Sequence record: MN850621.1
DNA: 64,000 bases
Strand: one strand, 5' to 3'
Origin: Escherichia phage dhabil
The notes below the pieces were generated by a model. That model had not been told where the DNA came from. It was given only the letters and a program-made list of their open reading frames with translations, and did not search any database. This document shows positions 54,006 through 58,852 of the stretch, piece by piece. Position 1 is the first letter of the stretch; each line of letters begins with the position of its first letter. Position numbers and translations under genes: made by a program.

Positions 54006-54206
54006 ATGGGCAGTATTTTTTACCAAATCTGGAAATTGGCAGAAAAGAAAGACAAGAAAATGATGTTAGGTTTTCTTGCGCTAGACGTATTCCTTTGGAA
54101 TCTTCTAGTAGTCCCTGTAGCCGCTAGCCAAGGGGTAATTTTACCAGCGGTTACAATGGAACACGTGTTAAGCATAATTGGATTCTTTAGCGGAGTTCCT
54201 GTCTAA
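54006..54206 (+). CDS. Small membrane protein (66 aa), antisense to its neighbours
   Basis: Consensus AGGAGG 6 nt upstream of ATG; two hydrophobic segments; only plus-strand ORF with a strong ribosome-binding site in this minus-strand region. Confidence 0.45.
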   Translation: MGSIFYQIWKLAEKKDKKMMLGFLALDVFLWNLLVVPVAASQGVILPAVTMEHVLSIIGFFSGVPV

Positions 54207-55231
54207 ATTTTAGAATATTTTGAAAGCCTCATTTTTGCCATTAACCCTTGGGCTATATTAGCTTTCATATATGCCAATACATCATTTATATCAGCTTTAT
54301 CTTTCATAACCATATCATTTATATCTTTAGAAGGCCACGGAGCCTTGTCCCAGAATAGAACCCTTTCGCCAGCATCAACTAGGCGTTGCATACGCTTAAT
54401 TGTGTCAGGATGACGGGGTTCATTGTCCATTACCCACGCTCTTGTTTCTTTACATGGAACTACTGATAAGTCTAATGACCCACCAGTAATTGCTATGGCA
54501 TTAGGGACAAATAAAGAATCAATAGGACCTTCCATTACCCACACCAATTGACGTTCGTCAACTGTATCCATTCCATATATTTTTGTAGCTTGGTCATGAG
54601 CTTTTATTGTAATATATTTTTGTGGAGCATCTTTACGTAAGGCTCGGCCCTGAAAACTTTCTATTTGTTTATCCTTATTGAAAATAGGAATAACCAAACG
54701 AGGCTCAGGCATTTCTTTAGAATAGGTTCCTGGATTAACTGAGTTAACCAATGCAGGCCATTCTTTAGTAAACCATAACCGATTCCATTTATTTTCAGGA
54801 ATGCACCGCAACGTCACATATTTGATAATAGGATGGTCCTTCGGCATTCTATCTAATCGTTCGCAGAAATTAAGCTTTTCAATGACAGGCATCTTAGCTT
54901 TAATTTTTTCAGATATCTCCACCTTAGGTGCAGCTTGTCTCCCGAACGATTGCTCTTTATGTTTCTCAAGAATATATTCCCGATATAAATCAGGTTCGTA
55001 TTCGTATAGGTACTTCTTAATTCCTGCCGAATAATCACAGTTAAAACAGTGTAGCATTACAGAGCCGTCATTGGCCGGATAGGCCCAGAATCGAGCTTTG
55101 TTTTCATCTTTTTGGGAGTCACCACATACACGGCAACGACAGTTTAATTTAAAATCACTACCAGTTACTTGTCTGAATTTAGGTTGGTAATTCAAGGCAC
55201 GTACAGCAAATTCTCTATCGACATATGACAT
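54203..55231 (-). CDS. 61: DNA primase gp61
   Basis: 342 aa; N-terminal zinc ribbon CRCRVCGD...CFNCDY plus Toprim-like core; same length as T4 gp61. Confidence 0.85.
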   Translation of the reverse strand: MSYVDREFAVRALNYQPKFRQVTGSDFKLNCRCRVCGDSQKDENKARFWAYPANDGSVMLHCFNCDYSAGIKKYLYEYEPDLYREYILEKHKEQSFGRQAAPKVEISEKIKAKMPVIEKLNFCERLDRMPKDHPIIKYVTLRCIPENKWNRLWFTKEWPALVNSVNPGTYSKEMPEPRLVIPIFNKDKQIESFQGRALRKDAPQKYITIKAHDQATKIYGMDTVDERQLVWVMEGPIDSLFVPNAIAITGGSLDLSVVPCKETRAWVMDNEPRHPDTIKRMQRLVDAGERVLFWDKAPWPSKDINDMVMKDKADINDVLAYMKANIAQGLMAKMRLSKYSKI

Positions 55232-55640: not shown

Positions 55641-56081
55641 TTAACCTCGGTTCATAAAGGCATTAAAAATCTGGTCGTCGATTGAATAAACCGGAGCTTC
55701 CAGAATTTTCAACAGACTGTTTTTGATATACTTGCTAGGGATATCCATATTAACGGCATCATTCAATTCGTTGTCCCGGAGGATATCTTTAAATTCAAAC
55801 CCTTCAAACTCAACCTTGTCAGGAATACCATCAGAGAAAAAATAAACCAATTGGTGCATTGTATTACATGAAAATAATTTAGACTTCACTGCAATAAGTT
55901 CTTCCCAGTGGTTTAATTCTCTATTAAGAAGTTTATGGGCAAATATAATCCTATCATCACTATCAACAAGAAAATAACCTAGGTACTGGTGGTCGTCGCT
56001 CCAAAACATCCTGTATGCTTGTGCATTTGGATTTTTACAACGAAGCTTTTTGATAACTAAATTTCTGTTAATCTTATTCAC
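55641..56081 (-). CDS. Hypothetical protein (146 aa)
   Basis: ORF in operon orientation. Confidence 0.45.
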   Translation of the reverse strand: MNKINRNLVIKKLRCKNPNAQAYRMFWSDDHQYLGYFLVDSDDRIIFAHKLLNRELNHWEELIAVKSKLFSCNTMHQLVYFFSDGIPDKVEFEGFEFKDILRDNELNDAVNMDIPSKYIKNSLLKILEAPVYSIDDQIFNAFMNRG

Positions 56082-56396: not shown

Positions 56397-56426
56397 ATAG
56401 TATCACTACCATAGACCGTTGTAAAC
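56397..56426 (-). promoter_or_regulatory. Early-promoter cassette for sp
   Basis: Minus strand GTTTAC - 18 nt - TACTAT - AGGCCTTATCAACTAATGAGGAG. Confidence 0.5.
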
Positions 56427-56427
56427 T

Positions 56428-56667
56428 TTATTTTAACGAATCTTCTAAATAAATTTTACGGAATTTACGTTTGGTCTGACGAATCTGACGCTTAGTAGGC
56501 TTCACAGGAAATTCGAAGAACTCTACATATTCCTGTTCATAATCATTATGACCTACTGAAAGAACTAGTTCCCAGCTGCTTACGGTGCGTTGGATAAACA
56601 TATTATGTTTACCAAAAGATTTATTCCAAAAAGAGCTAGGGGTTGGCTTCATTAATACAATATTCAT
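56428..56667 (-). CDS. Hypothetical basic protein (79 aa)
   Basis: ORF in operon orientation. Confidence 0.45.
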   Translation of the reverse strand: MNIVLMKPTPSSFWNKSFGKHNMFIQRTVSSWELVLSVGHNDYEQEYVEFFEFPVKPTKRQIRQTKRKFRKIYLEDSLK

Positions 56668-56808
56668 TTATTCCTCGTCTTCGTGTTTATGAGCAATTTC
56701 TTCGTATTCGCTATTGCAGTCTAAACAAGTTGCGTTGTCCCAAGCATCAAATACCGCCTGGTCTTCACATACCGAACAACCACATACTACACATTCAACC
56801 TCTTCCAT
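56668..56808 (-). CDS. Small Cys-rich acidic protein (46 aa), not in ORF track
   Basis: MEEVECVVCGCSVCEDQAVFDAWDNATCLDCNSEYEEIAHKHEDEE; CxxC pairs; abuts dmd. Confidence 0.35.
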   Translation of the reverse strand: MEEVECVVCGCSVCEDQAVFDAWDNATCLDCNSEYEEIAHKHEDEE

Positions 56809-57012
56809 TTAGATTTCCTCAATGCGGGCATCATATTCAAAAACTTTATTGTCATTAACAAAGGCTTTCACCAGTGCATTATTCACTTCTGCATACTGCA
56901 CTGTAACCCATTCAATCATTTTTTGGTCACTAACATCCAGCGCAGTTTCTTTGGTAAACATATTACCGTTTTCAAACCAACCAATAAACACTACGTTCTC
57001 TAATTTATACAT
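56809..57012 (-). CDS. dmd: Dmd antitoxin (discriminator of mRNA degradation)
   Basis: 67 aa; blocks VVFIGWFENGNMFTKE and TVQYAEVNNALVKAFV match T4 Dmd (61.5) as I recall it. Confidence 0.8.
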   Translation of the reverse strand: MYKLENVVFIGWFENGNMFTKETALDVSDQKMIEWVTVQYAEVNNALVKAFVNDNKVFEYDARIEEI

Positions 57013-57330
57013 TTAGATTTCCTCACAGAAGGCCCATTCAGCGTGATAAACCGTAGCGCCTTTGGTATCATTTAAACAAACCACATCTACCGGAGCAATT
57101 ACACGATAAAGACGAGGTTCTCCTCCCACCGAACGAGCAGCTCGTCCAGCATAAATCTTAGCCAAACCAATGTCCTCAGTAAAGAACACACGATTTAGGT
57201 TTTTCTTACGACCAGTTTCAGACAGAACTCCTGTTTCCTCAGGAGGACAAAGCATATTACCAATATTAGCAACACTACAACTTCCATGATAATACACTTT
57301 ATATTCTGCTTTACAGTCGATGGTTTTCAT
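57013..57330 (-). CDS. Hypothetical protein (about 105 aa)
   Basis: ORF track start 57342 is a TTG; ATG at 57330 follows GGAG; first ORF after cassette 57355..57383. Confidence 0.5.
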   Translation of the reverse strand: MKTIDCKAEYKVYYHGSCSVANIGNMLCPPEETGVLSETGRKKNLNRVFFTEDIGLAKIYAGRAARSVGGEPRLYRVIAPVDVVCLNDTKGATVYHAEWAFCEEI

Positions 57331-57354
57331 TTTGTTCTCCAAGTTGATAGGTCT

Positions 57355-57383
57355 ATAGTATCATGCCTACAGGAGAAGTAAAC
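57355..57383 (-). promoter_or_regulatory. Early-promoter cassette
   Basis: Minus strand GTTTAC - 17 nt - TACTAT - AGACCTATCAACTTGGAGAACAAA - ATG. Confidence 0.55.
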
Positions 57384-57392
57384 CCTTAAAAC

Positions 57393-57412
57393 AAAAAAGG
57401 AGCCGAAGCTCC
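57393..57412 (-). terminator. Intrinsic terminator after gene 41
   Basis: GGAGC-CGAA-GCTCC, followed in the minus-strand RNA by UUUUUU. Confidence 0.6.
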
Positions 57413-58852
57413 TTAAAATTTGATAGATGCTGCTAAATCGTCTAAATCGCTTCTATTAACACGCGACTGGCGATTGACCTCTGCTTGGCGGTTCATTTCA
57501 CCTGTAGCCTCACGAACGGTGTTCACTGGACCTGGGTTAGAATCGTCTTCAACTTCATACCAACGCTGGTTTCCTTTCTTAACACCAATCTTAAATTTGT
57601 TGTAGTAGCTCTTATCGCCATAACGAGATTTAAGCTGCTTAACCATCTGCATACCCATCTGAGCAAACTCTTCTGTCTCGACCACACCTAACATGAAGTC
57701 TGCCGTATGTGCAATACCAAAGGATTCAGCAATATCGGCCATATCGATTTCGGCCGCAACATTCGCACCACGAGTAGTCTGGGCTGCAGTCCACAGCAAT
57801 AATTTCTTCTCTACTGCAAGGCCACGTAGTTCTTCGGCAACCATCTTAATCAATCCGTAACTGTTTTCAGAGAAAACTTTCGTACGAGATGAAGCACAGA
57901 TAGCCAAGTAGTCGACGATAACGACCTGTGGGACAAAGTTTTGTTTGAGCTTGTATTCGTTTAATAATGCACGGAATGTATCGGCATTAGCACCACCAGT
58001 AGGGTACTGTTTAATCTTTAAACGACCTAAAGTAGCAGTTGAACGCCACTTATCCATCTTAGCTTTATATTCAGGCCATGAGACGTGACCATCATCAATA
58101 TCATCCAGTGATACATCCAGAAGGTTGGCATCGATACGCTTAGCACATACTTCCTCTGCCATCTCCATGGAGATATAAAGAACATCATAACCGGATTGAA
58201 GGTAATCAGCAGCCAATGAACATAGTCCAAGAGACTTACCTACGTTTGTTCCTGCCAACAATACGTTTTCAGTACCAAACTCAGCGCCACCCTTGGTAAT
58301 CTTATTCAGAATATTAAGACGGAATGGAACCTTACGGGCTTTATCAGAATAACTTTTAAAACGTTCTTCATAGTCATCCATCCAGTCATGGCCTAATTCA
58401 GAATCGAAACAAATCGATAATGCATCGCGCATGATATCCGGAATGGCACCAATACCTGGGAGTTTTCTATTTTGTTGCTCAACCGGAAGGTCGGCATTAG
58501 TTTGAATTTCAATAATTTTTGAAGTGGCATTATACATCGCTGCCTTCTGAACATATTTCTCTGTCTCTTTAACCAACCATTCTTGGTCTTCAGGGCCTGC
58601 ATTCAGAGAATTTAAAAGCTCTTTAGCTCCTTGGTGTTCAACTTCTGAAAGGGTGCTGTTATCTAATGCAATACTCAAAGCATTTTTAGAAGGCACCGCA
58701 TTATATTCATTGACATGTTTTTTTATTTCTTTGAAAAGGGTCTTTGCCGGACCCTGGTCAAAATAAGAATCATTCATATAAGGCCAGACCTTAGTGAAAT
58801 AATCACTATTGCCTAGCAGTTGAGCCAAAATAGTTTCTACCACTTCCACCAC
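57413..58852 (-). CDS. 41: Replicative DNA helicase gp41 (DnaB-like)
   Basis: 479 aa; Walker A GTNVGKS; long colinear similarity to T4 gp41 (YISMEMAEEVCAKRIDANLLDVSLDDIDDGH, LWTAAQ). Confidence 0.9.
   Translation of the reverse strand: MVEVVETILAQLLGNSDYFTKVWPYMNDSYFDQGPAKTLFKEIKKHVNEYNAVPSKNALSIALDNSTLSEVEHQGAKELLNSLNAGPEDQEWLVKETEKYVQKAAMYNATSKIIEIQTNADLPVEQQNRKLPGIGAIPDIMRDALSICFDSELGHDWMDDYEERFKSYSDKARKVPFRLNILNKITKGGAEFGTENVLLAGTNVGKSLGLCSLAADYLQSGYDVLYISMEMAEEVCAKRIDANLLDVSLDDIDDGHVSWPEYKAKMDKWRSTATLGRLKIKQYPTGGANADTFRALLNEYKLKQNFVPQVVIVDYLAICASSRTKVFSENSYGLIKMVAEELRGLAVEKKLLLWTAAQTTRGANVAAEIDMADIAESFGIAHTADFMLGVVETEEFAQMGMQMVKQLKSRYGDKSYYNKFKIGVKKGNQRWYEVEDDSNPGPVNTVREATGEMNRQAEVNRQSRVNRSDLDDLAASIKF

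Follow-up and report, generated by a model that had tools for sequence, protein, structure and literature searches.

A putative minimal ADP-ribosyltransferase, an exchangeable dmd cassette and a Cys-rich microprotein gene at an early locus of a JS98-like T4-type phage

In the Escherichia phage dhabil, the gene for the predicted RnlA/LsoA inhibitor Dmd lies between two small genes, one for a 105-amino-acid (aa) protein and one for a 46-aa protein, and the locus formed by these three genes on the minus strand of a 64,000-nucleotide (nt) stretch of phage DNA (sequence record MN850621.1; hereafter the window) is the subject of the present analysis. An earlier note, made from the letters of the window alone, had placed three open reading frames (ORFs) here and suggested that genes packed around an antitoxin are candidates for further anti-defence functions. 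We recover all three ORFs at the same coordinates and on the same strand, and our results argue that they are probably separate modules, brought together by exchange at shared gene junctions, and that the 105-aa protein is a putative ADP-ribosyltransferase (ART) whose link to Dmd is not an obligate one. The features on which the argument turns are the following:

57330-57013, minus strand: gene for the 105-aa ART-fold protein (Arr-like, 'p0068-like'; homologue of RB69 ORF040c), from the ORF list, phrog_2110 and the AlphaFold2 (AF2) fold
57012-56809, minus strand: dmd, 67 aa, RnlA/LsoA inhibitor by homology, from Pfam Dmd and phrog_2102
56808-56668, minus strand: ORF for a 46-aa acidic Cys-rich microprotein, from phrog_13952, the conserved Cys and the ratio of non-synonymous to synonymous substitution rates (dN/dS)
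57010-57025, minus strand: first copy of a junction repeat, TGAGGAAATCTAAATG, which comprises the ART codons for EEI, the stop codon TAA and the ATG of dmd, and gives dmd its Shine-Dalgarno sequence
56806-56821, minus strand: second copy of the repeat, an identical 16-mer at the boundary between dmd and the 46-aa ORF, 204 nt from the first copy (the length of dmd)

The 105-aa protein, which the earlier note had treated as anonymous, belongs to phrog_2110 (E=1.5e-60), a family of unknown function, and has the fold of an ART in its AF2 model (predicted local distance difference test score, pLDDT, of 86), with the NAD+ lobe of KptA/Tpt1 as the best structural match. The sole hint in Pfam is a weak match to Arr-ms (E=0.026, 15.1 bits against a cut-off of 25), in which the N-terminal two thirds of the model are aligned; more distant members of the ART family, collected by profile search, exceed this cut-off with 25.5-31.5 bits. 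When aligned by hhalign to Arr-3 (the Arr-3 sequence used being 100% identical to annotated arr-3 genes), YYHGS pairs with FYHGT and VFFT with IYFS, which places H15 at the catalytic His and F49 at the catalytic Tyr. Among 108 diverse relatives, H15, G16, [ST]17, E38, R41, F49, T51, Y60, G69, G70 and G91 are 97-100% conserved, and A57 and A61 are also essentially invariant. Y14-H15-G16-S17 corresponds to the aromatic-H-G-[ST] motif of strand 1, whose H, G and [ST] are each present in 108/108 relatives. Strand 2 does not carry the canonical Tyr; the aromatic character is kept by F49 (F in 106/108, Y in 2/108), and Y60 follows 11 residues on. The nicotinamide-stacking pair of diphtheria toxin and PARP is Y-X10-Y, to which F49-X10-Y60, equal in spacing, may be analogous. 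For the third catalytic residue, no Glu, Asp or Gln is invariant in the C-terminal half across the 108 relatives, and D82, N87/D88 and T93/V94 are candidates picked by eye. The apparent lack of an acidic third residue recalls, by analogy, the Tpt1/KptA enzymes, which have an H-H-V triad with no acidic third residue and yet are active.

With moderate confidence, we read the 105-aa protein, in which the signature of the NAD+ pocket is intact, as a putative minimal NAD+-binding ART of the Arr-like or 'p0068' branch of the H-Y-[EDQ] clade. Its link to KptA is structural only, because hhalign gave no significant match between the ART profile and the NAD+ lobe of Tpt1 (E=0.17), and the protein differs from the KptA/Tpt1 RNA 2'-phosphotransferases in having no RNA-binding N-terminal lobe. 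Searches of PDB sequences, for which the queries were the ART itself, the profile built on it and one distant family member, returned either nothing or a spurious match (gamma-glutamyl hydrolase). AcrF11 is a phage ART that acts as an anti-CRISPR by ADP-ribosylating the Csy complex; the 105-aa protein is only 19% identical to it and comes from another phage group, with no family relationship shown and no CRISPR link seen at the locus. That the gene encodes a true Arr, inactivating rifamycins for the infected cell, we regard as highly improbable. Arr is the best family match at the sequence level and some GenBank homologues are named 'rifampin ADP-ribosyl transferase', but the NCBIfam Arr equivalog model (NF033144) scores only 12.9 bits against a cut-off of 130, and the alignment to the Pfam model (PF12120) covers no more than its N-terminal two thirds. 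The phage protein is furthermore 35-45 aa shorter than Arr-ms and Arr-3 (105 aa against about 140-150 aa for Arr), with Phe for the catalytic Tyr and a C-terminal third that cannot be aligned, and is encoded by an early gene of a lytic phage, to which antibiotic resistance would bring little gain, and not by a resistance cassette.

The dmd product is a true homologue of Dmd, as the earlier note had recognised (Pfam Dmd, PF17587: 73.1 bits against a cut-off of 27, E=2.3e-20, with residues 4-63 aligned to profile positions 3-59 of 60; phrog_2102: E=4.6e-33), and by homology would inhibit the host RnlA/LsoA RNase toxins as in T4. It is clearly homologous to T4 Dmd (gene 61.5, the inhibitor of RnlA and LsoA) and lies in the same genomic neighbourhood, but it is 67 aa long and ends in ...ARIEEI, the codons for which make up the repeated junction; it is preceded by the ART gene and not by gene 41, and it occurs as two divergent alleles within the genus. 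Dmd is found in 797 phage records, almost all from phages of Escherichia, Shigella, Yersinia and Salmonella, a host range consistent with RnlA/LsoA neutralisation. In VR20-like phages, a 110-113-aa ORF right after dmd (L011 4532-4873, L015 4492-4824) gives a weak match to the Dmd hidden Markov model (HMM; E=1.8e-5/0.027) and is possibly a longer paralogue of Dmd; in one GenBank record the pair is labelled dmd_1/dmd_2.

The p0068-like H-Y-[EDQ] family has been described as one of the commonest among viral ARTs, and its members have been predicted to form a toxin-antitoxin pair with Dmd in T4-like phages of enterobacteria (Iyer, Burroughs, Anantharaman and Aravind, 2022, Viruses 14:1977; PMC9503650). 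The window locus is the pair described there, matched by gene pair and phage kind: an H-Y-[EDQ] ART gene followed directly by dmd. The link of the 105-aa gene to Dmd was thus already in print when the earlier note was made. On the published account, ART and Dmd would be a phage-borne type II toxin-antitoxin pair, in which the ART may act on RNA and Dmd would neutralise it besides, or instead of, RnlA/LsoA. The prediction was made for exactly this gene pair, and the two genes are indeed adjacent, translationally coupled through a TAA-ATG junction and, judging from a single promoter upstream and the lack of any notable internal terminator, co-transcribed; the ART domain is also built into very large effector-type proteins, either internally or at the C-terminus, and Dmd has been reported beside a Mod-like ART in some Klebsiella phages (PMC9503650).

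An obligate pair is argued against, however, because the partners neither co-occur nor co-vary. Among 68 ART loci from IMG/VR, searched with the Dmd HMM within 4 kb, only 10 have Dmd and 58 do not, and Dmd was not detected by tblastn or HMM in ART-carrying phages of Klebsiella, Acinetobacter, Aeromonas and Enterobacter, which account for >300 ART records. Conversely, several hundred T4-type phages carry Dmd without the ART. In QL01, IME341 and vB_EcoM_005, the ART is 99-100% identical to that of the window while Dmd is 51-54% identical, so that a 100% identical ART can stand next to Dmd alleles 54% identical. Other lineages have a lipoprotein gene, a small membrane protein gene, the 46-aa ORF or an unrelated gene after the ART gene, and relatives from bacteria of the candidate phyla radiation (CPR; Patescibacteria) have no antitoxin-like partner. 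Where the published account reads toxin and antitoxin, we therefore see an ART mostly without Dmd, Dmd without the ART, and dmd as an exchangeable cassette; we consider a toxin-antitoxin pair unlikely, and the pairing looks like a consequence of the site into which dmd was inserted.

This site is framed by the exact repeat. Two exact copies of TGAGGAAATCTAAATG are present in 64 kb against 0.01 expected, as revealed by a direct pattern search; the general repeat scan had omitted the 16-nt repeat. Since dmd lies in a duplicated junction, recombination between the copies would excise it exactly, and the junction would suit insertion equally well. At the 3' end of the ART gene, the junction GAGGAAAT(C/A)TAA-ATG is kept in nearly every lineage, whichever gene follows, and in three loci (L017, L020 and L021) the ART gene is joined directly to the 46-aa ORF through a GAGGAAATCTAA-ATG junction. 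When the window is compared with close relatives by sliding identity, both sides of dmd are 90-100% identical, and identity falls to 40-63% only from the ART/dmd junction to about 30 nt before the end of dmd. The dmd allele is swapped in this manner in QL01 and IME341 (L003/L005; 57010-56845, 40-63% nucleotide identity with flanks at 90-100%), and IME281 (L008) has a divergent 61.4 instead (56660-56450), with borders at the neighbouring junctions. We infer that the Shine-Dalgarno/stop/start linkers, together with a cassette upstream of the ART gene that is described below, are seams of module exchange.

Distant from the locus, a copy of the 16-nt motif with one mismatch (CATTTCGATTTCCTCA) is found on the plus strand at 2369-2384 and may mark a further gene junction with this kind of coupling. 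Paralogy of dmd and 61.4, hinted at by a 27-nt repeat with 74% identity, was rejected, as BLASTP gave no alignment of the two.

The third gene of the locus, the 46-aa ORF, matches phrog_13952 (E=3.4e-29) and has the Cys pattern C6xxC9xC11xxC14 ... C28xxC31, of which C6, C9, C28 and C31, forming two CxxC pairs, are invariant in 12/12 homologues and C11 and C14 vary. The tail of the protein is strongly acidic, with about 15 of the 46 residues acidic overall. Pairwise dN/dS is 0.08-0.33, with synonymous sites often saturated, from which we conclude that the ORF is a real gene. Homologues were found in at least 57 phage records (tblastn, with the first 15 residues masked as low complexity) and only three times in a large protein database, probably because short genes are rarely called. 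The earlier note had called the ORF unannotated, which is true of JS98, JS10, IME08, AnYang and VR5, where no feature is annotated, but not of dhaeg and many others, where it is a hypothetical protein. Scans of Pfam, NCBIfam and PADLOC returned no named family for the protein, and its AF2 model (pLDDT 46) is too poor for use. From the Cys pattern, it is probably a zinc ribbon or knuckle, and our best guess is that it acts as a metal-stabilised acidic mini-inhibitor. A second Cys-rich ORF of 47 aa (MKHFTCDDCG...GEEE), related and likewise with two CxxC pairs and an acidic tail, stands in tandem after the 46-aa homologue in two loci (approximately L017 4447-4590 and L021 4423-4566).

The 46-aa ORF is present in 10/68 ART loci, six times after dmd and four times directly after the ART gene (L012, L017, L020 and L021). 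These last four, three of them with the GAGGAAATCTAA-ATG junction, together with the duplication of the junction on either side of dmd in Dhakaviruses, could mean that ART and the 46-aa protein are the original pair, the latter as regulator, inhibitor or targeting subunit, and that dmd was inserted later. Such a partnership seems quite unlikely to us, with 58/68 ART loci devoid of the 46-aa ORF and RB69-type phages arranged as ART-dmd-61.4 without it; furthermore, the 3' junction of the ART gene is a general linker, because the same junction also precedes unrelated genes.

Independently of its neighbours, the ART is widespread. Its homologues fall into 122 cluster representatives with 50-99% identity and occur in 609 phage records (Escherichia 215, Klebsiella 116, Acinetobacter 68, Aeromonas 62, Enterobacter 29, and others), corresponding to about 600 sequenced phages from at least ten host genera; a few of the records carry the name 'putative ADP-ribosyl transferase'. 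In conservation, the ART equals or exceeds the replicative helicase gp41 and the primase gp61: within the same genomes (L010, L033, L036 and L044), its identity compared with theirs is 75 vs 55%, 73 vs 58/54%, 70 vs 52/53% and 90 vs 69/64%, where the figures of 70-75% against 52-58% are from Acinetobacter-type phages and those of 90% against 69/64% from RB69-type phages. For a gene with no counterpart at all in T4, it is unusual to be better conserved than helicase and primase. In the Shigella phage Shf125875 (L073 1201-1650), the ART is annotated with 149 aa and runs without the usual stop 130 nt into dmd in another frame; the longer form could stem from mutation or from an error in sequencing, or could be a genuine variant of the C-terminus.

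When 1.84 billion representatives were searched with the ART profile, 246 relatives were recovered, and many of the distant ones are C-terminal or internal domains in proteins of 250-3900 aa, accompanied by ART-PolyVal, NUDIX, Toprim, lambda-type portal, 2H/Acb1-like, GNAT and DUF7178 domains; among the fusions are one with a 2H domain and others with NUDIX. By their domain composition, these fusions have the predicted architecture of phage 'polyvalent' effector proteins, of the injected-effector type. A jumbo-phage relative (L062 3437-5926, on a 320-kb contig) adjoins genes for Thg1-like tRNA repair and an ADP-ribosylglycohydrolase, and another distant relative (L059 3309-4543) adjoins a gene for a YspA/SLOG domain; with the KptA fold and the 2H and NUDIX fusions, these neighbours give anecdotal hints toward RNA or ADP-ribose metabolism. 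A scan of bacterial genomes returned five ART loci, of which three appear to be T4-like phage (ART 66-70% identical, and two of the contigs 167-178 kb in size) and two are from CPR bacteria (L077 3902-4348 and L078 3923-4354). The CPR ARTs have 143-148 aa, are 45-47% identical and carry extra N- and C-terminal segments; one adjoins an IS-type transposase, and among the neighbours of the two loci there is no antitoxin-like or informative partner gene.

Two further readings of the 105-aa protein turn on its active site and on these relatives. The protein may keep the ART fold and the NAD+/ADP-ribose pocket without being a transferase, serving as an NADase or as a binder or sponge of NAD-derived immune signals. 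Phe at the canonical Tyr position, the lack of an invariant Glu, Asp or Gln in the C-terminal half of the 108 relatives, a size of only 105 aa with no obvious substrate-binding extension, and the SLOG (YspA) and ADP-ribosylglycohydrolase genes beside wider relatives all fit this reading. We nonetheless hold it to be rather unlikely: Tpt1/KptA, the top structural match, is active without an acidic third residue, the invariant H-G-[ST], F-x-T and Y60 suit an NAD+-using enzyme, and the ART domain travels with other catalytic effector domains. Alternatively, because a catalytic Glu or Asp appears to be lacking and the closest fold is the NAD+ lobe of KptA, the mini-ART might work like Tpt1/KptA and, early in infection, ADP-ribosylate the phosphate ends of RNA or DNA or a phosphorylated small molecule such as an immune signal. 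Such an activity would suit a gene that neighbours the one for the RNase inhibitor Dmd, and would accord with the domains that adjoin its relatives or are fused to them (Thg1, ADP-ribosylglycohydrolase, NUDIX and 2H); we put it forward as a tentative and rather unlikely possibility.

Transcription of the locus can be read from the following features, given with the genes that flank it:

57391-57414, minus strand: terminator-like hairpin AAGGAGC-TTCG-GCTCCTT (57414-57397) with a T-run, overlapping the gene 41 stop, from a scan and the sequence
57355-57383, minus strand: T4-type early promoter, GTTTAC/TTTACT (57383-57377), 16 nt, TG-n-TACTAT (57360-57355), read from the sequence
56428-56667, minus strand: gene for the gp61.4 homologue (DUF7279), last of a four-gene unit, from family matches
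56397-56425, minus strand: second T4-type early promoter, TTTACA-17-TG-n-TACTAT, before spackle, from a scan; downstream limit of the four-gene unit
58852-57413, minus strand: gene 41, with its stop codon at 57415-57413
54203-55231, minus strand: gene for gp61 (primase), from the window gene list

The own early promoter that the earlier note had ascribed to the 105-aa gene is indeed present, as TTTACT-N16-TG-n-TACTAT after the gene 41 hairpin. It escapes the sigma-70 scan (score 8/12) and is 93-100% conserved among Dhakaviruses. Promoter-early/stem-loop (PeSL) cassettes are reportedly a feature of T4-type phages treated by Arbiol in 2010. The T4-type early promoter has the consensus TTTACW-N17-TAYWAT, and Comeau et al. 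(2014) place it at variable blocks of genes, within PeSL cassettes that combine terminator and promoter (PMC4122927). The promoter ahead of the 105-aa gene matches this consensus except for its spacer of 16 nt instead of 17. Like PeSL cassettes, the window thus has a terminator hairpin and then a TTTACW...TAYWAT promoter at the edge of a block that varies between related phages and is missing from T4; it differs in the spacer, one base short, and in that its internal module borders are formed by the 16-nt Shine-Dalgarno/stop/start junction and not by PeSLs. The ATG of the 105-aa ORF has GGAG as Shine-Dalgarno sequence at 57340-57337; an alternative TTG start at 57342 would give 109 aa, and homologues favour the 105-aa form. 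The four genes from ART to 61.4 are coupled, every stop abutting the next ATG with GAGGAA upstream of it, and the start of 61.4 abuts the stop of the 46-aa ORF at GAGGAATAAATG. Because an early promoter lies directly upstream of it, spackle begins its own transcription unit, and ART, dmd, the 46-aa ORF and 61.4 are predicted to form one four-gene early transcription unit.

Over 1.2 kb around the locus, the window is 98.9% identical to the Escherichia phages dhaeg and CLB_P2 and 97% identical to JS98 and JS10, by which the source is assigned to the JS98-like Dhakaviruses among the T4-like Straboviridae. On the minus strand, the gene order is uvsX, gene 40, gene 41, the 105-aa ORF, dmd, the 46-aa ORF and 61.4, followed by spackle, a 146-aa ORF, a 63-aa ORF, 61.1 and primase gene 61. 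In T4 (strain T4_ev240) it is 41-dmd-61.4-sp-61.2-61.1-61, without the 105-aa and 46-aa genes, which agrees with the arrangement that the earlier note gave for T4, dmd directly next to gene 41. The 105-aa gene is also not a homologue of a T4 61.x gene; had it been one, with a known unrelated function, the proposal of the earlier note would by its own terms have been refuted. RB69 has the order 41-ORF041c-ORF040c-dmd-61.4, in which ORF040c is the 105-aa gene and the 46-aa ORF is missing. The interval between gene 41 and spackle is a variable region of JS98-like T4-type phages, in a part of the genome known to house genes for counter-defence and exclusion (dmd, sp, imm and adfA/61.2). PADLOC returned nothing relevant. 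The 146-aa ORF (phrog_8539; 55641-56081, minus strand) occupies the place that 61.2/adfA (anti-DarT factor A) has in T4 and RB69; its similarity to the Pfam AdfA model is confined to the final 15 residues, which align with the C-terminal end of the model (E=0.0069), and it may be a replaced or remodelled adfA.

Taken together, we favour as probable, with some reservation, the explanation that the locus holds separate early effector modules in a gene-exchange region and not one machine. The terminator/early-promoter cassette would drive ART, dmd, the 46-aa ORF and 61.4, so that the ART would be made in the first minutes of infection. Using NAD+, the ART would then most likely ADP-ribosylate some strongly conserved constituent of the cell, be it the end of a nucleic acid or a protein from the gene-expression machinery, a modification that would aid takeover or blunt the host response. 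Dmd would separately block RnlA/LsoA, as a cassette within the ART/46-aa ORF junction that is swapped among close relatives. The 46-aa protein would probably bind and block a host protein, and this microprotein and gp61.4 would be further separate effectors.

Several points weigh against this explanation. The 105-aa protein falls under the Pfam cut-off (15.1/25 bits) and far under the NCBIfam Arr cut-off (12.9/130 bits), its canonical Tyr is replaced by Phe and, since no acidic residue is invariant in the C-terminal half of the 108 relatives, transferase chemistry is not assured; a literature search found no experimental study on this ART. The co-occurrence counts depend on the sensitivity of tblastn and HMM searches and on the sample of 68 loci, and the tight coupling of ART and dmd, by TAA-ATG here and by an ATGA overlap in RB69, still fits a functional link, as does the report that certain Klebsiella phages pair Dmd with a different, Mod-like ART (PMC9503650). 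The packing of genes around dmd that the earlier note had observed is confirmed, and its interpretation is supported in part: the packing reflects the exchange of separate modules at shared junctions and not a functional unit built on dmd, and the anti-defence roles of the neighbours are putative.

The ART family and its link to Dmd are already in print as a prediction, and the genes of the window are near-identical to deposited ones. The present analysis adds evidence that speaks against obligate pairing of ART and Dmd, the finding of an exact repeat around dmd, the single-gene allele swaps and the support for the 46-aa ORF as a conserved, putative zinc-type gene; the value of these results lies in a well-defined experimental target, and they will not surprise specialists.

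T4-like phages are the best-studied users of ADP-ribosylation, through Alt, ModA and ModB, alongside which the 105-aa protein would be a fourth, much smaller ART. Identification of its substrate would reveal a further reaction used in host takeover or counter-defence and would settle whether Dmd has a second job as antidote; should the protein work like KptA, T4-like phages would possess in it a counter-defence enzyme, widely conserved, that caps nucleic acids or inactivates signals. The 16-nt repeat around dmd, in turn, shows how a counter-defence gene is slotted into, or swapped within, an operon while translational coupling is left undisturbed.

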